A stretch of DNA of 13,965 nt, from positions 1 through 13,965 of the forward strand of contig DATALE010000021.1 in NCBI GenBank assembly GCA_036261235.1, given 5' to 3'. Positions 3,438 to 13,965 of the stretch are shown here, piece by piece. The position numbers and the translations under genes were made by a program. Within the stretch, counting starts at the first letter, position 1. The number at the start of each line of letters is the position of its first letter. The notes under the pieces were generated by a model. It was given only the letters and a program-made list of their open reading frames with translations, ran no database searches and was not told where the DNA came from. Source of the stretch: Ruminiclostridium sp. GTDB lineage: Bacteria > Bacillota > Clostridia > Oscillospirales > Ethanoligenentaceae.

Positions 3438-4274
3438 TCAGATAATCTTCATTGAAATGTCAAATGCCTTGACGGAATGAGTCAGCGCTCCGATGGAAAT
3501 AATATCGACACCTGTTTCGGCAACCTTTTTTAACATTCCGGACGTGATTCCGCCGGAAGCTTCCACAAGGGCTTTGCCCCCGATTATTTCAACAGCCTGT
3601 TTCATTGTTTCGGCGTCCATATTATCAAGCATGATTATGTCCGCAGTAGTTGAGGCGGCTTCTCTCACTTCATTAAGCGTCCTTGTTTCAACTTCTATTT
3701 TTATAGTATGCCCTACTTTTGAGCGCAGGGTTTCAACTGCCTTTGTGATTGACCCGGTAGCGTCAATATGGTTGTCCTTTATCATTGCGGCGTCGGACAG
3801 ATTGAAACGGTGATTGTGACCGCCGCCTACCGTGACGGCATACTTTTCGAGTGCGCGGAGACCGGGAAGGGTCTTGCGGGTGTCAGTTATAGCAGCCTTT
3901 GTTCCGGCAACCTCATCAACCGCGTTTTTAGTTGCGGTGGCAATTCCCGACATATGCTGCAGAATATTAAGGGCGGTGCGTTCACCTTTTAACAACGCGC
4001 GTGTTTTGGCCTGAACCCGGGCTATTATATCGGATTTTTCAAGTAGATCGCCGTCTTTTTTAAGTATTTCAAAACAAGCATCGGCATCAAGAATTTTAAT
4101 TGTTTTGAGCGCTGCGTCAATACCGCAGAGAACACCATCCGCTTTTGACATAAACACAGCGTTGGAAACCTGCTTTTCGGGTATCAGGTAATCGGTTGTC
4201 ACATCAAGGTAGGTAATGTCTTCCTTGAGTGCTCTGCTGATTACATCGTCAAGAATAAAATCGGAAACATTCAT
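3438..4274 (-). CDS. nadC: Nicotinate-nucleotide pyrophosphorylase [carboxylating] (quinolinate phosphoribosyltransferase).
   Basis: 278 aa, the typical length. Shows the conserved QPRTase layout (..LKGERTALNILQHMSGIAT..KAAITDTRKTLPGLRALEKYAV..GGGHNHRFNLSDAAMIKDNHI..). Its start overlaps the nadB stop in ATGA. Confidence 0.85.
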   Translation of the reverse strand: MNVSDFILDDVISRALKEDITYLDVTTDYLIPEKQVSNAVFMSKADGVLCGIDAALKTIKILDADACFEILKKDGDLLEKSDIIARVQAKTRALLKGERTALNILQHMSGIATATKNAVDEVAGTKAAITDTRKTLPGLRALEKYAVTVGGGHNHRFNLSDAAMIKDNHIDATGSITKAVETLRSKVGHTIKIEVETRTLNEVREAASTTADIIMLDNMDAETMKQAVEIIGGKALVEASGGITSGMLKKVAETGVDIISIGALTHSVKAFDISMKII

Positions 4275-5743
4275 CCTATTACCTCCGTCAATATCAATTT
4301 TGCAATTTTCACAAGACTTTTTGCTTCCAGCAAATCAAGACTGTAGGTGAAGTCGGTGGTGTCCAGCATTTCTTCGATTTCACAAATTCTCGGGAGCCCA
4401 CGTTTTGCCGCGATAATGTCAGGATTAATAAAAAAGCTGTTCTGAACAATTGAACGGACTTCCCGGCGTATACCGATCGGGAGCGGCTGCCCGTTCTTCA
4501 TCTCAAATAATGCGCGTGGTGTAAAGCTGTTTTCTTCGCCGAGACATTTCTGCGAGATATCATGTGCCGCTCTGCGTGAAAATACAAGCGCCTCAAGCAG
4601 CGAGTTGCTGGCAAGACGGTTGTTGCCGTGAACCCCGGTATGGGAGCATTCCCCAACAGCGTAAAGCCTGTCCACAGTTGTCCGTGAAAAAGTGTCTACG
4701 TCTATGCCGCCCATTAGATAGTGCTGACAGGGGAAAACCGGAATTCTTTCTTTTGTGATATCAATCCCCTCGTCAAGGCATTTTGAATAGATGCCGGGAA
4801 AACGTTCTTTGACAAACAGAGGATCCTGAGCTGTAATATCAAGGTAAAAATTCTCGCTGTTAGTTTTTATTGATTCTTCCATAACGAAGTGTGAAACAAC
4901 GTCACGTGGGGCGAGTTCACCCCGGCTGTCATAAGAGGGCATGAAGCGTTCACCGCGGCAGTTAAGCAGGATAGCCCCCTCGCCGCGTACCGACTCTGAA
5001 ATAAGGAAGCGTTCGCGCTCTTCACGCGCCGCAAAAGCCGTCGGATGGAACTGGATAAGGCTTATTCCGCTGACTTTTGCCCCGAGACCGTTCGCCATTA
5101 CTATTCCGTCACCGGTCGCTATTTTTGAGTTCGTAGTATATTTATAAACACGCCCGATACCACCAGTGGCAAGTATTGCGTAACGCGAGCATACATTAAA
5201 AAATTTATCGCCCTGAAGGATACCAAAACAAAAACCGCGTTCAATCCTATCCATTTTAAGGACAGCAGCGTTTTCAAGAACGGTGATGTTTTTTCTCCGC
5301 TTTACATGAGCGCTCAGCTTTTGTACTACTTCAAGTCCTGTAGTATCCTTGTGGTGGACGATGCGGTTGATTGAATGTCCGCCTTCAAGGGTCATATGCA
5401 GATGACCAAGCGTATCACGGTCAAAATCAACGCCGAATTCTATCAGTTTTCGCACATCTTTTGGTCCTTCATCGACCAGAACTTTTACTGCGTTAATGTC
5501 ATTTTTGTTTCCGCCTGCCACAAGCGTGTCATGAATATGCTGTTCCCGGCTGTCTTTGTCGTGGTTGAGGACAGCGGCAATACCCCCCTGAGCCAAGGCA
5601 CTGTTGCTAAGTTCAAGTTCGCGCTTTGTTATTATAAGAACGGACAGTGACGGGTCGGCGTTAAGAGCTGCGTAAAGGCCCGACACTCCGGTACCTGCTA
5701 TAACAATATCATACGCAGGTATTGTTGAGTTGTTTTTAAGCAT
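4271..5743 (-). CDS. nadB: L-aspartate oxidase.
   Basis: N-terminal FAD-binding fold DIVIAGTGVSGLYAAL. Carries the succinate dehydrogenase/fumarate reductase flavoprotein family motifs AQGGIAA and EGGHSxxRIVH. Translationally coupled to nadC. Confidence 0.8.
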   Translation of the reverse strand: MLKNNSTIPAYDIVIAGTGVSGLYAALNADPSLSVLIITKRELELSNSALAQGGIAAVLNHDKDSREQHIHDTLVAGGNKNDINAVKVLVDEGPKDVRKLIEFGVDFDRDTLGHLHMTLEGGHSINRIVHHKDTTGLEVVQKLSAHVKRRKNITVLENAAVLKMDRIERGFCFGILQGDKFFNVCSRYAILATGGIGRVYKYTTNSKIATGDGIVMANGLGAKVSGISLIQFHPTAFAAREERERFLISESVRGEGAILLNCRGERFMPSYDSRGELAPRDVVSHFVMEESIKTNSENFYLDITAQDPLFVKERFPGIYSKCLDEGIDITKERIPVFPCQHYLMGGIDVDTFSRTTVDRLYAVGECSHTGVHGNNRLASNSLLEALVFSRRAAHDISQKCLGEENSFTPRALFEMKNGQPLPIGIRREVRSIVQNSFFINPDIIAAKRGLPRICEIEEMLDTTDFTYSLDLLEAKSLVKIAKLILTEVIG

Positions 5744-5841
5744 TTATTATCTGCACCTTCAAATCAGTATGCACAGCGCGCATAAATTTACATTTATTTT
5801 ACCACAAAAACATGCCGACTAAAATTATAAAAGAAAAGATA

Positions 5842-5870
5842 TTGTCATTTTTTTAAATAAAGGTTAAAAT
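5842..5870 (+). promoter_or_regulatory. Sigma-A-type promoter TTGTCA-N17-TAAAAT for the aldo/keto reductase gene.
   Basis: Hexamers and spacing read directly. It lies in the divergent intergenic region shared with nadB. Confidence 0.45.
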
Positions 5871-5929
5871 GTATATCATATTATTTGAGCGAGTACAACT
5901 TTTTGAGCATTTTTACTATGGAGGAAAAT

Positions 5930-7054
5930 ATGCAGAAACGGATTGTCGAGAAGACCGGGGAATGGGTGTCGCTGCTTGGTTTTGGCTGCATGCGCTTTCC
6001 CAAAAAAGACGGCGTTAATGATATGGAACAGGTGCAGAAGATGGTTGATTACGCCAAAGTAAGCGGCGTAAACTATTTTGACACGGCCTATGTTTATGAT
6101 AATGGGGATTCAGAACGCTGTATCGGCAAAGCGCTGAGCAAATATCCTCGTGACAGCTACTTTTTGGCGACAAAGCTTCCGATATGGGCTGTCAAAGAAG
6201 AATCGGATATTGAAAGGATTCTTAATACATCGCTTGAAAGACTTCGAACCGGATACATTGATTTTTATTTGCTGCACTCAATGGATAAGGATCATTGGAA
6301 CGACGCAAAAAAATTCAATGCCATAGAAATATTGAAGAAATATCGCGAAGAAGGAAAAATTAAATATATCGGTTTCTCTTTTCATGACAGTCCGGAAATG
6401 TTCCGTGAAATCGTCGGTGCATTTGATTGGGATTTTGTCCAGATTCAGCTCAATTATCTTGACTGGAATTTGCAGAGGGCGGGCGAGATGTACCAGATAA
6501 TTGAGGAAAAGAACTTGTCCTGCATAGTGATGGAGCCGATCCGCGGCGGGGCACTCGCAAATCCGCCAAAAGAAGTCTCCGATATTATCAATAAAGCAGC
6601 CGTGGGTGTTTCACCGTCATCAATGGCGTTAAGATTTTGCGCTTCTCATCCGCGTGTCAAGGTGATTTTAAGCGGTATGTCCAGTTTTGAAAATGTAAAG
6701 GAAAACGTTGAAACGCTTGCAAATTTCACACCGCTCACAGAGGAAGAAAACAAGGCTCTTGATGAGGCCGCAATGTTTTTAATGTCACAGCCAAATATCA
6801 AATGCACAGACTGCCATTACTGCATGCCTTGCCCAAAGGGCGTAAATATTCCGTCATCGTTTACAGCTTATAACGACTACATGAAATTCCACAATGATGA
6901 GATGCTAAAAGGCCGCTATAATTTTGAACTTAAAGATGCAAGTCCGTATCAGTGTGTAAAATGCGGTATTTGCGTCAAAAAGTGCCCGCAGCACATAGAC
7001 ATTCCGAACAACCTTGACAAGGTCAGGGAAGTATTGTCACACGCGGGCATATGA
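5930..7054 (+). CDS. Aldo/keto reductase fused to a C-terminal 2x[4Fe-4S] ferredoxin domain (COG1453-type oxidoreductase).
   Basis: N-terminal AKR TIM-barrel motifs (GFGCMRFP, DTAYVYDNGDSE, hydrophobic-x-LHS). C-terminal CTDCHYCMPCP and CVKCGICVKKCP motifs. GGAGG at 5920-5924 sits 5 nt before the ATG at 5930, so the TTG-started extension in the ORF track (5885) is rejected. Confidence 0.8.
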   Translation: MQKRIVEKTGEWVSLLGFGCMRFPKKDGVNDMEQVQKMVDYAKVSGVNYFDTAYVYDNGDSERCIGKALSKYPRDSYFLATKLPIWAVKEESDIERILNTSLERLRTGYIDFYLLHSMDKDHWNDAKKFNAIEILKKYREEGKIKYIGFSFHDSPEMFREIVGAFDWDFVQIQLNYLDWNLQRAGEMYQIIEEKNLSCIVMEPIRGGALANPPKEVSDIINKAAVGVSPSSMALRFCASHPRVKVILSGMSSFENVKENVETLANFTPLTEEENKALDEAAMFLMSQPNIKCTDCHYCMPCPKGVNIPSSFTAYNDYMKFHNDEMLKGRYNFELKDASPYQCVKCGICVKKCPQHIDIPNNLDKVREVLSHAGI

Positions 7055-8660: not shown

Positions 8661-8789
8661 TCCGTGCCTCCTCATGAAAGCGGTGTGGAGTTTTTTAAAG
8701 CATAAAATAAAGTAAAAGCTGCTGTTTTTTAAATAAGCGCCGCTTATGCCCAATAACACGGTAACGTTCAGCACCTGCGTGACATACTG

Positions 8790-8798
8790 TGTTATAAT
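8790..8798 (+). promoter_or_regulatory. Extended -10 element TGtTATAAT. It is the candidate promoter for the rnf-like operon and gives a ~185-nt leader.
   Basis: Read directly. The -35 is poor (TTCAGC). Confidence 0.3.
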
Positions 8799-8930
8799 AT
8801 TTATACTGGAAGAAACCATAAGACCGGCAAAAATATATCCGCTATTACATTATAATGAATACAACGCCAAAAGTCACTGTGCGACTTTTGGAAGAACGTC
8901 GATATTTATGTATTATTGTCGCAGGAAAGC

Positions 8931-8961
8931 AACTGCAGTTTTACTGTTTTGAAAACAGTAA
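8931..8961. promoter_or_regulatory. Two adjacent palindromes: AACTGCAGTT (8931-8940) and TTACTGTTTT-G-AAAACAGTAA (8941-8961, 10-bp perfect arms). Candidate operator or leader hairpin 29 nt upstream of the rnfC-like start.
   Basis: Perfect dyad symmetry read directly. There are three copies of the C(A/T)GTTTT / AAAAC(A/T)G half-site. The RBS GGAGG follows at 8979-8983. Confidence 0.45.
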
Positions 8962-8989
8962 ATGTACGCCAATTATATGGAGGTTTTTT

Positions 8990-10288
8990 ATGATGCTTAG
9001 AAGGCCGAGAGGTGGGCTGTGGCTCGAACTAAAAAAAACGCCGGCAGCCGAAAGGCCGATCGTTGAACTTAAAGCTCCGACAAGGCTCTATCTTCCGCTG
9101 AATCAATGCGGTGGAAGTTTGCCGGAAGTGCTGGTTCAAGAAGGCAGCCGTGTTTTAATGGGACAGCCTATAGCTGACGCTGCGCACGGGGATTGCTGTG
9201 CTTTGCACTCTCCTGTTTCCGGAACAGTTGAAAGCATTAAAGAATATAATTACCCTATCGGCGGCAAATCCGCTATGATAGTAATTGAAAATGACGGAAG
9301 GGATATGCCTTATAAAAAGAGTGCTGCTCATCCGAAAAATACCGAGGAAGTAATATCCGCCATAAGAAATGCCGGTGTCGTATCATCAAAAGGCTATGAG
9401 CTGCCGCTTTGGACGAAAATTCAGAAGATTGCCGACAGGAACATCAAAACAGTAGTATTGAACGTAGTCGAAACAGAGCCTTATGTCTGCGCGTCACAAA
9501 AAGTTATGGACGAGATGCCGGACGAGGTCGCACAGGGGCTCGGCATAATTATGAAATGCGCCGGGGCAAAAAAAGCAATTTTGGCGGTCAGCGACGATAT
9601 TCCTGGAGAAATTGCCAAAGGTATGGCGGAAAGTGCTCATCTTGCAGGTGTTGAGCTGACCATTGCCCATATACCACAAAAATACCCGAATGGGAACGAA
9701 CAATTTCTCTGGCGTGAGCTTTTTGCGCACGAAATCGATGCTCAGATTAAAAAAGGCGGACAAGCGCCGGAAGTATATTTCACTTATCCTCAGGACTGTG
9801 TTAATATATGCCGCGCGGTTGAAGACGGAACGCCTCAGCTGACGCGTGTGATTACCGTTGCGGGAGACGCCGTTGAAAATCCGCAGAATCTTGAAGTGCG
9901 TATCGGAACCCGGATTCATGATATTCTGGATCATTGCGAGCTCAGTTTTGACCCTGACAGGGTGGTTCTCGGCAGCGCTATGCGAGGGGTGGCCATTCAA
10001 AGCCTTGACACGCCGGTTACCAAATCTGTGGGAGCGGTTCTTGCTCTTAAGGCCGCGAGCAGAAAAATCGCAAAGTCGTCGTGTATTAACTGCGGCAAAT
10101 GCGTCAGCGTGTGCCCACAGGGCCTCTTGCCGAACTATATAGCAATGCGGGCGGTAAAAGCTGACGTTGATGCTCTTAAAGATCTCCATATTGACGACTG
10201 TATCGAATGTGGCTTATGTGCATACATATGTCCGGGCAGAATGCCGATTGTCGAATTGATTAAAAAAATAAAAAAAGCCGCGATGTAG
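8990..10288 (+). CDS. rnfC: RnfC-like electron-transport subunit. The RnfC_N domain and the C-terminal 2x[4Fe-4S] are present, but the canonical GGAGFPT NADH/FMN-binding motif is absent.
   Basis: N-terminal PLNQCGGSLPEVLVQEGSRVLMGQPIADAAHGDCCALHSPVSGTV matches the RnfC N-domain. ETEPY and IPQKYPNGNE are conserved. C-terminal CINCGKCVSVCP and CIECGLCAYICP motifs are present. Where canonical RnfC has GMGGAGFPT this protein has SSKGYELPLWTK (9371-9418). The start at 8990 has GGAGG 6 nt upstream, so the 45-codon upstream extension in the ORF track is rejected. Confidence 0.7.
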   Translation: MMLRRPRGGLWLELKKTPAAERPIVELKAPTRLYLPLNQCGGSLPEVLVQEGSRVLMGQPIADAAHGDCCALHSPVSGTVESIKEYNYPIGGKSAMIVIENDGRDMPYKKSAAHPKNTEEVISAIRNAGVVSSKGYELPLWTKIQKIADRNIKTVVLNVVETEPYVCASQKVMDEMPDEVAQGLGIIMKCAGAKKAILAVSDDIPGEIAKGMAESAHLAGVELTIAHIPQKYPNGNEQFLWRELFAHEIDAQIKKGGQAPEVYFTYPQDCVNICRAVEDGTPQLTRVITVAGDAVENPQNLEVRIGTRIHDILDHCELSFDPDRVVLGSAMRGVAIQSLDTPVTKSVGAVLALKAASRKIAKSSCINCGKCVSVCPQGLLPNYIAMRAVKADVDALKDLHIDDCIECGLCAYICPGRMPIVELIKKIKKAAM

Positions 10289-10325
10289 GAAAGCCTGCTC
10301 CGGTGAATGATAGGGGAACTGTTTC

Positions 10326-11306
10326 TTGAGACTGTTTGCAGCGTCGTCGCCTCACATAAGGCATGGCGATGATATAAGAGTTACGATGGGCGATACGATT
10401 TTGCCGCTCCTGTTTCTGCTGTTTATGGCAGTATACTATACGGGCTGGAGGGCGCTTACACTGACCGCCGTTTCGGTAGTAAGCGCTGTCGTCTTTGAAT
10501 ACCTTTACAGGCGAATTCTCCGCAAAAGCCGCAGCATCGGCGATATTTCGGCGATTGTTACCGGAATGATTATTGCGTTCTGCATGCCGGTTTCCGCGCC
10601 AATTTGGTTTCCGATTGTCGGATCGTTCTTTGCCATTGTCGTAGTAAAGCAGCTTTTCGGAGGGCTTGGCGGCAATATTTTCAACCCGGCGGCAAGCGCA
10701 ATCTGCCTGCTGACCGTTACATGGCCCGGCGTTATGTCAACCTTTCCGCAGGCTTCTGAAAAATTTCCCCTGTTTGCGACTCCCGTTAATTTTGAAACCG
10801 GAGTGCCTGTGCTGACTTCACTTAAAAACGGGACTCTTCCCGACAACAAAATTTTTGAGATGCTGATAGGCTATACCCCGTCAAACCTCGGCACAGGCGC
10901 GATTTTAATTATAGCTATCGCGGCTTTGGTACTGCTTTACCGCAGAATAATAAGTTGGAAGGTTCCGCTTGCATTTCTCGGTACCGTGGCGCTCGCGGCT
11001 TTCATTTTTCCGCGGTGCCCGTCCGGGAGGATTGACTCGGTTTTGTTTGAGCTGACTTCCGGTTCAGTTGCTTTTGCGGCTGTTTTTATGGCAACAGATC
11101 CGGTGACAAGCCCGGTTACTACATTCGGGCGGTTGCTGTACGGATTCTTCCTGGGCGTCATTACTATTTTTATAAGATACTTCGGGATTTATCCGGAAGG
11201 CGCATTTTTTGCGATACTAATCATGAACCCCTTTGTATTGGCGTTAGACAGACTCGGCTGGACGTTCAAAATGAAAGGGGGCAGAATAACATATGAGCAA
11301 CAATAA
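10326..11306 (+). CDS. rnfD: RnfD/NqrB-family integral membrane subunit.
   Basis: N-terminal MRLFAASSPH parallels E. coli RsxD MVFRIASSPY. Also carries LFGGLGGNIFNPAASA and FMATDPVTSPVTTFGRLLYG. TTG start with AGGGGA upstream. Polytopic, 326 aa. Confidence 0.7.
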   Translation: MRLFAASSPHIRHGDDIRVTMGDTILPLLFLLFMAVYYTGWRALTLTAVSVVSAVVFEYLYRRILRKSRSIGDISAIVTGMIIAFCMPVSAPIWFPIVGSFFAIVVVKQLFGGLGGNIFNPAASAICLLTVTWPGVMSTFPQASEKFPLFATPVNFETGVPVLTSLKNGTLPDNKIFEMLIGYTPSNLGTGAILIIAIAALVLLYRRIISWKVPLAFLGTVALAAFIFPRCPSGRIDSVLFELTSGSVAFAAVFMATDPVTSPVTTFGRLLYGFFLGVITIFIRYFGIYPEGAFFAILIMNPFVLALDRLGWTFKMKGGRITYEQQ

Positions 11307-12213
11307 GAAAAAAAGCAATAAGGCTCCGAAATCGGCATCCACGGCGGCGGTTATGGAAAAAAAGAAACCTGCTGAAAGCGCGGTAAAAAAGGTTTCCGTA
11401 AAAAATACGGTAAAGCCTGAAACCCCGGCGAAAAAAATCATCACTCCGAAGAACAGCAAAAAGGGAATTGCGAATATTATTTCAGAAACAAAAAATAAGG
11501 CGGCCGCACCTTTAAAAGTGATAAAGAGCAAGGCTTCTCAGTTTTCAAAACCTGAAAAGGTCAAAAAGGAACCGAAGCCTGTTGAAGTTGAAGCAAAAAT
11601 TGATCAGGTCAGGAACATTAAAGAACGGTTATTTTCTCTTAATCCTGTATTCGTTAGAATTTTGGCGGTTGTCCCGCTGCTGGGCGCGGCTGTATCGCTT
11701 AAAAACGGCGTGATGCTTTCATGCGCAATGCTCCTTACACTGCTTCCGCTTAACCTGCTGCTTATTCCCATATACAGATTTGTTCCTGAACGATACCGTT
11801 TTGCGATATCATTTGCCGCGGCAGGCATTATAATAACACCTGTTTGCCTGCTGACAGATTATCTTGTTCCCACAATCACCTCAAGCTGCGGAATTTATTT
11901 GCCTCTTATTGCCGTATGCGCACTTTTGTTGACCGAAAAAAAACATTTCGGCAAAAAATATGTTGTGCCGAATACAGCGCGTGACGCACTGCTGAACGGC
12001 CTCGGTTTTGCTTTTGCCGCAGTAATTTTCTCAGCGCTGCGCGAGATAATTTCGAACGGCTCGTTTTATGACAGGGCTCTCCCTTATATATCGGGATTTA
12101 AGTTCAAATTTGCGGCAATGCCCGCCGGCGCGTTTATACTTCTCGCAGTTTTGGCGGCGCTTTTCAGAAAAATATCCAAATACAAAAAAACTGACGGGGA
12201 GGATATGGAATGA
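11293..12213 (+). CDS. rnfE: RnfE/NqrD-family membrane subunit with an unusual ~110-aa lysine-rich low-complexity N-terminal extension.
   Basis: Residues ~112-306 align with RnfE: NPVFVRILAVVPLLGA, LGIF-like GIYLPLIA.C and LLNGLGFAFA...LREIISNGSFY. Residues 1-110 are K/P/A/S-rich (KKKSNKAPK, KKPAESAVKK, KVKKEPKPVEVEAK) with no TM helix and no FMN-binding motif. The gene overlaps rnfD by 14 nt and rnfA by ATGA. Confidence 0.65.
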   Translation: MSNNKKKSNKAPKSASTAAVMEKKKPAESAVKKVSVKNTVKPETPAKKIITPKNSKKGIANIISETKNKAAAPLKVIKSKASQFSKPEKVKKEPKPVEVEAKIDQVRNIKERLFSLNPVFVRILAVVPLLGAAVSLKNGVMLSCAMLLTLLPLNLLLIPIYRFVPERYRFAISFAAAGIIITPVCLLTDYLVPTITSSCGIYLPLIAVCALLLTEKKHFGKKYVVPNTARDALLNGLGFAFAAVIFSALREIISNGSFYDRALPYISGFKFKFAAMPAGAFILLAVLAALFRKISKYKKTDGEDME

Positions 12214-12803
12214 ATTCATCACAGTTTGTTTCAATTGCCGTATCGGCAATTTTTGTCCAGAATCTCGTCATTGTTTATATGCTGTGTGAGGGAAGTTTCT
12301 TTAAAGAACTTAAAACTCCCACATCAGGGATTCTTTATGGAATTTCCGTGACCGCGGCGACAACTCTTACGTCTGTTTTGGCATGGATAGTAAATAGTTT
12401 TTTGCTGAGACCGAATTCTCTCGAATGGCTTGCGCCATTTGTGTTCATAATTATAATAGTAATGCTGGAAACAGCCGCCGAACTCATTTTTTCAAAAGTT
12501 GTTCCGGATAAGATTAACTCTCTTCACAAACTGTTTACGGCTTCGGCCTTCAACTGTGCAGTCTTGGGACATGCATTCCTGAATATTGAAGTAAATATGA
12601 GAGGCTTTTTCGGAGCCGCGTTTTATGGGTTCTGCGCAGGTATCGGTTATATCGCCGCAATAATTATAATAGCGAACGCTCTCGAGCGCATCAGGTTCAG
12701 CACGCCGCCGACGGTTTTCAAGGGGCTTCCTATTGCGCTCGTCACAACCGGAATTATTTCACTGGCATTTATGGGATTTGCGGGTATAACGATTTCATAC
12801 TGA
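12210..12803 (+). CDS. rnfA: RnfA/NqrE-family membrane subunit.
   Basis: 197 aa. Carries the FNCAVLG motif and a TM1 Cys (YMLCEG). GGAGG sits 7 nt upstream. Typical six-TM hydropathy. Confidence 0.75.
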   Translation: MNSSQFVSIAVSAIFVQNLVIVYMLCEGSFFKELKTPTSGILYGISVTAATTLTSVLAWIVNSFLLRPNSLEWLAPFVFIIIIVMLETAAELIFSKVVPDKINSLHKLFTASAFNCAVLGHAFLNIEVNMRGFFGAAFYGFCAGIGYIAAIIIIANALERIRFSTPPTVFKGLPIALVTTGIISLAFMGFAGITISY

Positions 12804-13068: not shown

Positions 13069-13965
13069 ATGCGAAGAATAAAAAGAGGAAACTACAGCGG
13101 TATTTATTCGTCAAGGCGCAGAAGGCGCAGTTCAAGTGCGCTTAAAACGGTAATCTTTATTATTCTAGCCGCGGCGGTTGTGTTCGTCGGCTACAGCATT
13201 TCTGACCCGCTCATAAGGCTTTTCTCCGGAAACCTGAAACCGACCGCTGCGTCGCATATTTCAAGTTCAAAATCAACGGCTTCATCTTCAAAGAAAGCCT
13301 CGTCTTCAAAGGCTGGCTCATCTTCAAAATTAAAGGCAGCAGCTGTTCGCGGCGTTTATCTGCCAAAAAGCTATCTGTCAAACACCGCTGAACTTAACAG
13401 CTTTATTTCACAGGCAAAAAGCGCCGGTATAAATCTTGCCGTAATTGACCTAAAAGCGGAAGACGGCGTTGTAAACTATGCTTCAAAAACGGACAGCGCG
13501 AAAGAGGCCATGGCACAAGGTGCGCCTGATGCGTCGGCGGCAGCAAAAGCTTTATCTGACGCCGGAATTACCCCCGCCGCCAGAATTTGTGCGTTTCAGG
13601 ATCCTGTTGCCCCTTCGGTTTTGCGCGGAGCAGGTGTTCTTTATTCACAAAATCATAGTATGAACTGGCTTGACCCGTCAGGAAACAGATGGCTTAATCC
13701 GAATTCACAACAGGCACAGCAATATATTACAAGCCTTGCGACAGAGGCCGTATCTTTGGGATATAAACAGATATTTATTGATTCTCTTACTTTCCCGACA
13801 AAAGGGAATCCAGACAGTCAGGGTTATTATGGAGACAATATGACTTCAAAAGAACAAGTCATTTCGGATTATGTTAAGACGCTAAAACAGCAGGTCAACG
13901 CCGCGGGCGGAAAACTGACTGTTATGGCCGCCGGAGCAGCGGCGGTCGGTCAGGCAAACGAGAAT
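13069..13965 (+). CDS. Membrane-anchored putative glycoside hydrolase of the DUF4015 / GHL10 (YngK-like) family. The 5' part only; it runs off the window end.
   Basis: GGAGG 9 nt upstream of the ATG. Basic N-terminus plus one TM helix, then a Ser/Lys-rich linker (SSSKSTASSSKKASSSKAGSSSK). The block VRGVYLP...AGINLAVIDLKAEDGVVNY...ICAFQDP...WLDP...GYKQIFIDSLTFP parallels DUF4015 TIM-barrel proteins. The ORF is open to the last base. Confidence 0.6.
   Translation, partial: MRRIKRGNYSGIYSSRRRRRSSSALKTVIFIILAAAVVFVGYSISDPLIRLFSGNLKPTAASHISSSKSTASSSKKASSSKAGSSSKLKAAAVRGVYLPKSYLSNTAELNSFISQAKSAGINLAVIDLKAEDGVVNYASKTDSAKEAMAQGAPDASAAAKALSDAGITPAARICAFQDPVAPSVLRGAGVLYSQNHSMNWLDPSGNRWLNPNSQQAQQYITSLATEAVSLGYKQIFIDSLTFPTKGNPDSQGYYGDNMTSKEQVISDYVKTLKQQVNAAGGKLTVMAAGAAAVGQANEN

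Follow-up and report, generated by a model that had tools for sequence, protein, structure and literature searches.

A Predicted Disordered, Lysine-Rich N-Terminal Extension on a Putative RnfE Paralogue in a Reduced Rnf-Like Operon of Clostridia

Introduction

Two cysteines of RnfE, located in the half-helices of TM1 and TM4, and two cysteines of RnfA bind an intramembrane [2Fe-2S] cluster; both the four cysteines and the cluster show strict conservation across Rnf/Nqr (PMC12174285). The solved RnfE/NqrD proteins (7ZC6, 8AHX, 9ERI, and 7XK3) consist of a six-helix core, probably in N-in orientation, and are encoded between rnfD and rnfA. A reduced rnfDEA operon is annotated in Faecalibacterium duncaniae A2-165 (Oscillospiraceae), where it coexists with a full rnfCDGEAB operon (PMC10781979); the present analysis found such operons in Ruthenibacterium lactatiformans (L005) and in a MAG (L018) as well. 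Two-subunit “Nqr/Rnf-like” complexes (Meheust et al. 2021; PMC10979944) represent another type of reduced Rnf/Nqr derivative without the ferredoxin-input module. Our literature searches retrieved no study on the Rnf of [Clostridium] cellulosi and nothing relevant on disordered or low-complexity tails of Rnf subunits.

Here, we describe an RnfE-like protein (RnfE′) with a long Lys-rich N-terminal extension, encoded in a stretch of 13,965 nucleotides from Ruminiclostridium sp. (contig DATALE010000021.1), which is referred to in its full length as the window.

Operon Organization and the RnfE′ Core

The Rnf-type features identified in the window, apart from the extension, are as follows:

8990–10288, forward strand: rnfC-like gene (rnfC′), encoding an RnfC_N domain, an NADH/FMN domain, and two 4Fe-4S motifs
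10326–11306, forward strand: rnfD-like gene (rnfD′), passing the TIGR01946 cut-off
11617–12213, forward strand: Rnf-Nqr six-helix membrane core of the RnfE-like protein (PF02508, E = 2.8e-26; PDB alignments; AF2 helices)
12210–12803, forward strand: rnfA-like gene (rnfA′), below the NCBIfam rnfA cut-off

Homology with relatives places the true start of the rnfC-like gene at M46/M47 of the listed open reading frame (ORF). RnfD′ keeps the flavinylation Thr in an atypical context (L-F-A-T), while RnfA′ retains the TM4 Cys and has its TM1 Cys displaced by two residues. The RnfE-like ORF (11293–12213, forward strand; 306 aa) directly follows rnfD′ and precedes rnfA′, and the layout rpe-mecA-rnfC-D-E′-A-DUF4015 is conserved in the loci of close homologues. 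No FMN_bind or RnfB-type gene was present in the window or in six syntenic loci. The extension thus sits where rnfG normally stands, as the first-pass annotation had stated, since rnfD′ is followed by the ORF carrying it and the window has no rnfG; the accompanying statement that RnfB is missing holds for this locus, but not beyond it, as F. duncaniae keeps a full rnfCDGEAB operon beside its rnfDEA operon (PMC10781979).

The Pfam Rnf-Nqr match was restricted to aa 109–287 of the RnfE-like ORF, six helical spans were predicted by AF2 past residue 117, and the closest PDB matches were RnfE chains (E = 3.9e-18 to 1e-9). The protein scored 87.6 bits with TIGR01948 (NCBIfam rnfE; cut-off 213.4) and 87.8 with NF009070 (cut-off 184), passing neither. 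The columns that hold the canonical [2Fe-2S] cysteines of TM1 and TM4 contain V127 and A210; both ligands are lost in all 12 family members, with V/A at the TM1 site and an invariant Ala at the TM4 site, while the canonical controls L010, L014, and P0014 presented C/C. Sequence and gene order indicate that RnfE′ is a divergent RnfE paralogue in a reduced rnfC-D-E′-A′ operon of an Oscillospiraceae-type Clostridia lineage.

RnfE′ shares the six-helix core, the position between rnfD and rnfA, and probably the N-in orientation with the solved RnfE/NqrD proteins; unlike these, it has 108 disordered residues, V127/A210, and an operon without rnfG or rnfB. PDB alignments also bear out the first-pass statement that canonical RnfE/NqrD proteins are without such an extension, as it is absent from all structurally characterized members. 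The reduced rnfDEA operons, like that of the window, adjoin rpe, are without rnfG or rnfB, and encode a divergent, Cys-less RnfE/RnfA pair together with RnfD; however, the rnfDEA operons of L005 and L018 are without rnfC and their RnfE has only ~20 residues before the core, whereas the window family keeps rnfC and a long tail. The two-subunit complexes (PMC10979944), like the window operon, are reduced and without the ferredoxin-input module, but they combine an RnfG-like subunit with an RnfD-like/NAD-binding fusion and are without RnfE/A, whereas the window operon encodes RnfC, D, E′, and A′ without RnfG.

Extent, Composition, and Predicted Structure of the Extension

Two features precede or enter the membrane core of the RnfE-like protein:

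11293–11616, forward strand: Lys-rich N-terminal extension, predicted to be intrinsically disordered (codons 1–108; composition, AF2, open frame)
11578–11640, forward strand: amphipathic pre-membrane helix linking the tail to TM1 (aa 96–116; AF2 helix; conserved in alignments)

Residues 106–114 onward of the query align with residues 4–21 onward in solved RnfE/NqrD chains; because the Pfam and PDB alignments begin only at ~106–114, the RnfE-like protein has ~108 extra N-terminal residues. Lys accounts for 28 of these 108 residues (26%), followed by Ala (13), Ser (11), Val (10), and Pro (9); the net charge is +20, with no Cys, no His, and a single aromatic residue. As the other proteins of the window average 6.4% Lys (binomial P = 1.7e-10), this enrichment is far beyond chance. 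With 3.37 bits, the tail has a lower Shannon entropy than any segment of 108 aa from the remaining proteins of the window (minimum 3.46), and its hydropathy peaks at a Kyte-Doolittle 19-residue mean of 0.42, arguing that it contains no transmembrane segment. AF2 pLDDT was <50 across residues 1–107 (25–42 in the tail), with no secondary structure predicted up to approximately residue 95. Together, pLDDT, entropy, charge, and predicted cytoplasmic side match the features of disordered polybasic membrane-proximal tails such as nFtsK. The first-pass annotation had thus correctly described a basic extension of ~110 aa ahead of an RnfE-like membrane core, its low complexity, its frequent Pro, Ala, and Ser, and the absence of a hydrophobic segment, and AF2 supports disorder as well. 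Of its coordinates (11293–11628), the start stands, while the end is moved to 11616, as 11628 lies four codons into the conserved pre-membrane helix; its ~30% Lys compares with a count of 26%.

No Pfam match was found in the tail at E ≤ 10, no tandem repeat was found in the extension DNA, and Rfam and tRNA searches gave no match; the tail of the window protein contains only scattered xPKx/AKK motifs. The pre-membrane helix, with the motif (F)W/Q-x-N-x-K-x-R-L-L-S-x-N-P, is the sole part of the N-terminal region that is conserved in alignments A1 and A2. A Sec signal peptide, which has a basic n-region, a hydrophobic h-region of 7–15 residues, and a cleavage site, was considered and rejected, as residues 1–108 contain no hydrophobic stretch. 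The [C.] cellulosi homologue CDZ24984.1 is annotated as a “putative secreted protein”.

The position of the tail in the rnfG slot raises the possibility that rnfG, or an RnfG-RnfE fusion, has decayed to a translated remnant without transmembrane anchor and FMN-binding fold. Tail lengths (96–190 aa among close homologues) do approach those of RnfG (184–195 aa), and genuine FMN_bind-RnfE fusions do occur (P0116 and P0186). However, no FMN_bind (PF04205) match was found in 12 family members even at E ≤ 10, hhalign of the 12 tails against four RnfG sequences gave a probability of 0.04%, and direct reading of the 108-aa tail found neither a hydrophobic anchor nor an [S/T]GA[T/S] flavinylation motif. 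In addition, the RnfG domain is extracytoplasmic, whereas the tail is predicted to be cytoplasmic, and at one locus (L031) an rnfG gene coexists with an RnfE that carries a Lys-rich tail. As far as homology can be detected, descent from RnfG is therefore largely refuted, and we regard it as very unlikely, in agreement with the first-pass reading that the tail has no FMN_bind signature and is not a degenerate RnfG.

Evidence for Translation of the Extension

The start of the RnfE-like ORF is associated with two features:

11274–11281, forward strand: Shine-Dalgarno-like element AAAGGGGG, 11 nt upstream of the ATG, within the rnfD′ codons for M-K-G-G-R
11293–11306, forward strand: 14-nt dual-coding overlap in which rnfD′ ends and rnfE′ begins (identical length in related loci)

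In the window, the tail frame is free of stop codons where 6.6 would be expected (P = 0.0004), and the remaining forward frames contain 7 and 9; across five related loci, no stop occurs in the tail frame (4.9–11.8 expected; P ≤ 0.008 each), with 6–28 stops in the other forward frames. All five family loci have the element GAAAGGGGG ahead of the ATG, with a spacing of 11 nt in four of them and of 12 nt in L003, where the element reads GAAGGGGGG. The 14-nt overlap between rnfD′ and rnfE′ is present in the window, L003, L004, L025, L026, and L027, and these data place the translation start at the ATG lying within the end of rnfD′, which is consistent with translational coupling. The N-terminal cap MS(K/R/N)N(K) is conserved because it is dual-coded with the end of rnfD′; MSKNKKK was accordingly rejected as a protein-level motif for the first five codons, which also encode the RnfD′ C-terminus and stop codon.

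A misassigned start codon, or a sequencing frameshift in an A-run that joins a small ORF to rnfE, could also produce an apparent extension. The extension region contains six A6–A7 homopolymer runs, in L028, a distant relative represented by one short contig, a frameshift splits the ORF between tail and core, and the JGI gene call P0045 (207 aa) of the [C.] cellulosi cluster starts internally. However, the exact window protein is present in two independent SRA assemblies from distinct strains, with identical extension DNA; five divergent loci maintain an open frame along with the conserved Shine-Dalgarno-like element and ATG; and L004 has no in-frame start codon in the 166 codons that separate codon 25 from the core (codon 191). 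Poly-A slippage was rejected as well, as runs of just 6–7 A are too short. Such an artefact is therefore extremely improbable, and these comparisons confirmed, as far as open frames and start signals can predict translation, that the tail is real and translated, forming one continuous ORF with the core.

Conservation and Variation among Relatives

All 12 close homologues (Oscillospiraceae, including [C.] cellulosi), which extend down to about 42% overall identity, carry an extension of 96–190 aa, identifying the extension as lineage-specific. When genome contigs were scanned with the family alignment, L009 was the single additional family member recovered, its tail being truncated where the contig stops; the scan otherwise returned canonical Rnf/Nqr loci. 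Only M1, S2, and one Pro column reached 90% conservation when the tails were aligned by themselves (A5). Within [C.] cellulosi, ~13 substitutions and one in-frame 3-aa indel were found in the 163-aa tail, as compared to one substitution in the 207-aa core, i.e., a substitution density roughly 15-fold that of the core. By these alignments, the tail is evolving much faster than the core, with its presence, but not its sequence, conserved in the lineage.

Tail composition follows the GC content of flanking genes (n = 8; rho = −0.74 for K% and 0.98 for G+A+R+P%). While 10 of the 12 close homologues have a basic tail, including a GC-rich one with 18% Lys and a charge of +22, two present net charges of −7 and −2, and L027, with the same operon type as the window, has an A/P/E-rich tail with just 5% Lys. 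In the wider clade, net charge ranges from +30 to −34; since some tails are neutral or acidic, a clade-wide function cannot depend on positive charge. Almost no tail was present in 27 of 68 Cys-less relatives, so that it is dispensable in many lineages. Tails were found in 56% of the Cys-less clade, as compared to 21% of canonical RnfE, in a wider sample of 155 proteins that may over-represent tailed proteins, as it was picked by a profile including tail columns. In a small sample of loci, tails of at least 65 aa were present in 7/7 loci with rnfC′, as compared to ~20 aa in the rnfC-less L005 and L018; P0073 and P0094, which lie on contigs of about 1 kb, did not enter this comparison.

These patterns could be explained by a tail with no function of its own. 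If translational coupling fixes the rnfE′ start at the rnfD′ stop, the intervening sequence would need only be in frame, hydrophilic, and non-translocatable, and Lys would be a by-product of AT-biased mutation. The high substitution density, the absence of any conserved motif besides the dual-coded first five codons, the dependence on GC, the wide range of net charge, the many tailless relatives, and the tail split off by a frameshift in L028 all fit this explanation. On the other hand, in-frame deletions are easy (one was seen), yet every close homologue retains at least 96 aa; most tails remain net basic, including that of the GC-rich member; and tails are enriched in the Cys-less clade and long in the loci with rnfC′. 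We thus consider a neutral spacer unlikely, although it deserves to be taken seriously.

A Lys-rich tail was also found on a canonical RnfE. P0147 (locus L031) has, like RnfE′, an N-terminal tail before the Rnf-Nqr core (99 aa, Lys/Thr-rich, 26% Lys, +14), but unlike RnfE′ it keeps both Cys ligands, scores 200 bits on PF02508, and is encoded in an rnfD-rnfG-rnfE-rnfA-rnfB operon. Its K/T/S-rich tail differs in sequence from that of RnfE′ and is evidently, from this comparison, of independent origin. As L031 has a tail plus rnfG and rnfB, the presence of a Lys-rich tail is not linked to the absence of either gene. Elsewhere, other RnfE N-termini carry acidic tails, FMN_bind, LysM, or receiver domains.

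Topology and Candidate Binding Partners

RnfE is reportedly the N-in partner of the RnfE/RnfA pair. In the core of RnfE′, Lys and Arg number about 17 in predicted inside loops and about 4 in outside loops, as counted by eye on AF2 helix boundaries. The account of topology in PMC12174285, which cites Saaf 1999, gives RnfE and RnfA an inverted topology. The tail should thus lie on the cytoplasmic side, and the first-pass annotation, which had placed it there by the positive-inside rule, is supported by both the loop bias and the inverted topology of the pair.

Bacterial ferredoxins are acidic, and the first-pass annotation had speculated that, with RnfB missing, the tail is an electrostatic arm that docks ferredoxin. 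A cytoplasmic, strongly basic tail (+20) and the absence of rnfB from the window locus and all syntenic relatives fit this proposal. However, the tail contains neither Cys nor His as potential cofactor ligands, and RnfE′ is without both [2Fe-2S] ligands that fulfill the canonical role (PMC12174285), so that the canonical electron entry point on the cytoplasmic side is gone; as rnfG is absent as well, the canonical electron path is also broken further on. Furthermore, positive charge is not conserved, either among close homologues (−7 and −2; 5% Lys in L027) or in the clade (+30 to −34), tail composition tracks GC, L031 has a Lys-rich tail alongside rnfG and rnfB, and Faecalibacterium keeps a full rnfCDGEAB operon beside its reduced operon (PMC10781979). 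The proposal was therefore not upheld, and we assign ferredoxin docking only a slight probability.

Another reading of the basic composition is a histone-H1-like tail that binds nucleic acid and anchors DNA or RNA at the membrane complex. Bacterial H1-like tails are K/A/P-rich with AKK/PKK-type composition, are marked by tandem PAKKA/AAKK-type repeats, and bind DNA, and some homologues (e.g., P0008–P0010) have K/A/P-rich tails with runs of this type. Against this, no tandem repeat was found at the DNA level, charge is not conserved across relatives, composition tracks GC, and the genomic context gives no pointer to nucleic-acid functions; nucleic-acid binding is thus highly improbable.

Discussion

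Our preferred explanation, to which we give about even confidence as a whole, is that RnfE′ carries a genuine, translated, disordered, and polycationic tail that is weakly constrained and serves as a non-redox electrostatic or steric appendage. The tail is called non-redox because it has no Cys or His and because the RnfE Cys ligands are lost. According to this explanation, the tail would remain cytoplasmic, on the side of the RnfE′/A′ dimer that RnfB normally occupies, and would act as an appendage of low specificity. It probably rests on the anionic surface of the inner leaflet, on adjacent subunits, or on both, and may tune assembly, placement, or turnover of the complex; it would carry no electrons, replace no RnfG, and dock no ferredoxin. 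Composition and analogy suggest such lipid or partner binding. The analogy is with mycobacterial FtsK, whose basic disordered N-terminal extension (nFtsK) binds to the lipids cardiolipin and phosphatidic acid, while core function does not require it (PMC13277299); a tuning effect of this kind has been demonstrated by experiment for nFtsK. Like the RnfE′ tail, nFtsK is poorly conserved in sequence and adds to a conserved machine without replacing a part of it; it differs in belonging to an unrelated family involved in cell division and in that its lipid and protein interactions have been shown experimentally.

A more far-reaching idea is that rpe-mecA-rnfC-D-E′-A′-DUF4015 encodes an uncharacterized Rnf-derived complex without RnfB, RnfG, or [2Fe-2S] cluster, in which the RnfE′ tail takes over the cytoplasmic organizing role of RnfB by tethering or regulating RnfC′ or another partner; we consider this quite unlikely. 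Such a complex may, for example, combine an NADH-linked RnfC′/RnfD′ module with a structural E′/A′ pair. The one hint of a tether between tail and RnfC′ is the association of tail length with the presence of rnfC′ (7/7 loci, a small sample). If the tail does organize RnfC′ without RnfB, a disordered region would replace the scaffolding of a folded subunit in a respiratory-type complex.

On its own, the tail matters little, being a further case of a disordered, lineage-specific appendage to a membrane protein, and it indicates that additions are tolerated at the N-terminus of RnfE. It does, however, draw attention to the conserved, reduced, Cys-less Rnf-like operon, which is of greater interest, as it is without RnfG, RnfB, and the RnfE Fe-S ligands, yet is under selection. 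The Oscillospiraceae, which host this operon, include abundant gut and rumen bacteria; as annotations count reduced operons as “Rnf”, the ferredoxin:NAD+ energy conservation that is inferred from them may be wrong.

Extent and Composition of the RnfE′ N-Terminal Extension

The window contains a reduced Rnf-like operon with four subunit genes (RnfC′, RnfD′, RnfE′, and RnfA′), which is also found at five related loci. Features discussed here are as follows:

3438–7054: nadC-nadB and an aldo-keto reductase gene with a C-terminal Fe-S (Fer4) region
8990–12803: reduced rnfC-D-E′-A′ operon (also in L003, L004, L025, L026, and L027)
11293–12213, + strand: rnfE′, 306 aa, of which codons 1–108 (11293–11616) form the extension
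11244–11531, − strand: 95-aa Phe-rich antisense ORF, not a gene
13069–13965: DUF4015 gene (putative glycosyl-hydrolase-like), cut by the window end

The Pfam Rnf-Nqr match is limited to residues 109–287 of RnfE′ (E = 2.8e-26), and alignments with the solved RnfE/NqrD chains 9ERI_E, 7ZC6_E, 8AHX_E, and 7XK3_D start at residues 4–21 of those chains and at residues 106–114 of the query, indicating that about 108 residues are absent from characterized RnfE. This tail contains 28 Lys (26%), 13 Ala, 11 Ser, 10 Val, and 9 Pro, lacks Cys, His, Trp, and Tyr, and has a net charge of +20. Lys is enriched as compared to the other window proteins (6.4%; binomial P = 1.7e-10), and the entropy of the tail (3.37 bits) is below that of every equal-sized chunk from those proteins; the extension contains no tandem DNA repeat. 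The first-pass annotation of a Lys-rich, low-complexity extension on an RnfE-like subunit is thus confirmed, although its estimate of ~30% Lys was slightly high. The absence of a hydrophobic segment, also proposed there, holds as well, since the highest 19-residue hydropathy (0.42) leaves the tail without a TM segment.

AF2, run with an alignment of the 12-member family of close RnfE′ homologues, left residues 1 to ~95 without secondary structure (pLDDT 25–42) and predicted a helix (residues 96–116) and six membrane helices after them. Counted on the AF2 helix boundaries, K+R number ~17 in the pre-TM1 segment, the 2–3 and 4–5 loops, and the C-tail vs. ~4 in the other loops, so that the core by itself predicts an N-in orientation, in line with the cytoplasmic side initially suggested for the tail. 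RnfE is said, after work by Saaf in 1999, to be the N-in partner of an inverted pair. Inverted topology is known for RnfA and RnfE (PMC12174285, citing Saaf 1999), and RnfB normally docks on the cytoplasmic face (PMC9588780). Taken with this inverted topology, the N-in prediction would place the tail in the cytoplasm, at the face where RnfB normally docks.

Translation of the Extension

The extension frame contains no stop codons in five divergent family loci (window, L003, L004, L025, and L026), where shuffles of the same sequences are expected to contain 4.9–11.8 stops (P = 0.0000–0.008 per locus); the remaining two forward frames contain 6–28 stops. All five loci share an ATG with a 14-nt overlap with the rnfD stop, located 11–12 nt downstream of a Shine-Dalgarno-like GAAAGGGGG (GAAGGGGGG in L003) that sits within the conserved RnfD C-terminal M-K-G-G-R codons. 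The N-terminus "MS(K/R/N)N(K)" is conserved largely because it is dual-coded with the last rnfD codons and stop. No conserved internal start was found near the core in these five loci; in L004, in-frame ATG, GTG, and TTG are all absent from codon 25 to the core at codon 191. Two independent SRA assemblies encode the identical 306-aa protein, with extension DNA identical to that of the window and 17 and 6 differences elsewhere, which excludes a homopolymer sequencing error. A frameshift separating a small basic ORF from rnfE, raised by the first-pass annotation as a possible artifact, is therefore not what we found, and we conclude that the extension is translated. The Phe-rich antisense ORF mirrors the Lys-rich (AAA/AAG) coding strand.

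Tail Variation among Close Relatives

A search of 5.8 billion proteins identified 12 close homologues (293–388 aa), each with a low-complexity N-extension of 96–190 aa; the next matches showed 27–33% identity and lengths of 185–273 aa, except for P0019, a 408-aa RnfE-RnfA fusion. An exhaustive profile search across 1.84 billion representatives placed only ~15 clusters in the tight family. One family cluster represents [Clostridium] cellulosi (Oscillospiraceae), with the protein annotated as a "putative secreted protein"; in this cluster, the 163-aa tail shows ~13 substitutions plus an in-frame indel of 3 aa, and the 207-aa core a single substitution. Across the N-terminal region of the alignments, conservation is limited to the pre-membrane helix and the initial residues. 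A net basic charge (+5 to +22) is seen in ten of the 12 tails, P0007 (−7) and P0011 (−2) being the exceptions, and several tails contain long acidic blocks; L027 has the window operon type, yet an A/P/E-rich tail with 5% Lys. Tail composition follows the GC content of flanking genes (n = 8), negatively for K% (Spearman rho −0.74, P = 0.037) and positively for G+A+R+P% (rho 0.98, P = 3e-5). Presence of the tail is maintained in the lineage, while its sequence drifts with mutational bias. The main rival to a functional role is that the tail represents an essentially neutral in-frame spacer.

Operon Context and Redox Sites

The gene order rpe, mecA (opposite strand), rnfC, rnfD, rnfE′, rnfA′, DUF4015 is shared by the window, L003, L004, L025, L026, and L027, and partly by L007; rnfG and rnfB are absent at the window locus and at six relatives' loci. 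The NAD-biosynthesis genes nadC-nadB and the aldo-keto reductase gene lie just upstream of rpe-mecA-rnfC and are kept upstream in the closest relatives. In the DUF4015 protein, a basic N-terminus is combined with one hydrophobic helix and a linker rich in Ser; because its gene trails rnfA′ in all syntenic relatives, a functional link with the operon is suggested. By homology, rnfC starts at M46/M47 (~8990/8993; relatives begin MLKRPRGG) and the mecA-like adaptor gene (− strand) probably at ~8660 (M54; relatives 197–201 aa), the ORF list over-extending both (8855–8992 and 8661–8819, respectively).

More distantly related loci of Ruthenibacterium lactatiformans (L005/L006) and an Oscillospiraceae MAG (L018) carry rpe-rnfD-rnfE-rnfA without rnfC; RnfE has only ~20 residues before the core in L005 and L018, and neither RnfE nor RnfA has the canonical Cys ligands at these loci, except that L005 RnfA keeps one TM4-site Cys, displaced by one position. 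As the tail is present in seven of seven loci with rnfC′ and absent in rnfC-less loci (a small sample), it may be linked to RnfC′.

RnfC′, the NADH-binding subunit, and RnfD′ pass NCBIfam cut-offs, which RnfE′ (87.6 vs. 213.4) and RnfA′ (112.7 vs. 229.3) fail. Two RnfE Cys contribute to binding of the intramembrane [2Fe-2S] cluster and are described as strictly conserved across Rnf/Nqr (PMC12174285); each of the 12 family members has V/A and an invariant Ala at these sites, with Cys at both in canonical controls. RnfA′ retains the TM4 Cys and has the TM1 Cys shifted by two residues; since L027 retains a different set, the sequences suggest a decaying cluster site. In RnfD′ the flavinylation Thr is preserved, but its L-F-A-T setting is atypical. 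The operon is unlikely to encode a canonical ferredoxin:NAD+ oxidoreductase. Faecalibacterium duncaniae is reported to carry rnfDEA alongside a full rnfCDGEAB (PMC10781979), indicating that reduced operons can be paralogues coexisting with normal Rnf.

N-Terminal Extensions in the Wider Clade

We compared 155 RnfE-like proteins (the 150 best matches of the exhaustive profile search plus the 12 family members, overlaps counted once); the search profile included tail columns, so the sample may be biased. N-extensions of at least 40 residues occur in 61 of the 155, with net charges of +30 to −34. In this possibly biased sample, extensions are rarer among proteins retaining both canonical Cys (9/42, median 12 aa) than among those missing both (38/68, median 66 aa). 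Other N-terminal fusions on RnfE-like cores include FMN_bind (P0116 and P0186; RnfG-RnfE fusion), LysM (P0132), and a response-regulator receiver (P0084); the extracytoplasmic domains among these are hard to reconcile with an N-in RnfE. Three loci carry further tail variants:

L031, 1115–2026 (P0147): canonical RnfE that retains its Cys and bears a 99-aa Lys/Thr/Ser-rich N-tail of independent origin (26% K, +14)
L028, 354–1161 (P0068): 58-aa acidic "tail" ORF from the usual rnfD-overlapping ATG, divided from the RnfE core by a frameshift
L010, 8022–8831: canonical RnfE with both Cys in a full rnfCDGEAB, with a ~65-aa, A/E/S/G-rich, net acidic, low-complexity C-terminal tail

The L028 split comes from one GC-rich metagenome contig of 2.5 kb and may reflect a sequencing error or a pseudogene, or may be genuine. 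The acidic C-tail of L010 indicates that disordered cytoplasmic tails on RnfE can also be C-terminal and need not be basic.

The view of the first-pass annotation that the tail is not a decayed RnfG is supported: FMN_bind was not detected in the family tails even at E ≤ 10, an hhalign comparison of these 12 tails with four RnfG sequences (two confirmed FMN_bind) gave a probability of 0.04%, the tail lacks an anchor helix, and an RnfG domain would lie on the wrong membrane side. The accompanying proposal that the tail docks ferredoxin in place of the missing RnfB is not supported. The tail has no ligand residues, the cluster that takes electrons from the cytoplasmic side is missing from the RnfE′ core, and positive charge is not conserved among relatives of the same operon type. 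Decisively, the L031 Lys/Thr-rich tail sits on a canonical RnfE whose gene has rnfG (FMN_bind) on one side and rnfA-rnfB on the other. This low-GC operon (rnfD-rnfG-rnfE-rnfA; 0.32 over rnf core genes) is followed by the gene for a RnfB-like FeS protein that is very short, at 104 aa.

Interpretation

The extension is best explained as a genuine tail, intrinsically disordered, polybasic, and cytoplasmic, carried by a divergent RnfE paralogue without a redox role. At the membrane surface and the vacant RnfB-side face, it would serve as an electrostatic or steric appendage of low specificity, influencing assembly, placement, or turnover of the complex. Its closest experimentally studied analogue is the N-extension of mycobacterial FtsK, also basic and disordered; that extension binds the lipids cardiolipin and phosphatidic acid, takes part in protein contacts, and is not required for core function (PMC13277299). 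In the literature, we found no description of such an RnfE tail or of the rnfC-D-E′-A′ operon type, the only trace being a passing "rnfDEA" annotation; the known two-subunit "Nqr/Rnf-like" system differs from this operon. The tail itself adds a disordered appendage to an already known family of membrane subunits, and the reduced, Cys-less Rnf-like operon that it marks merits separate study.
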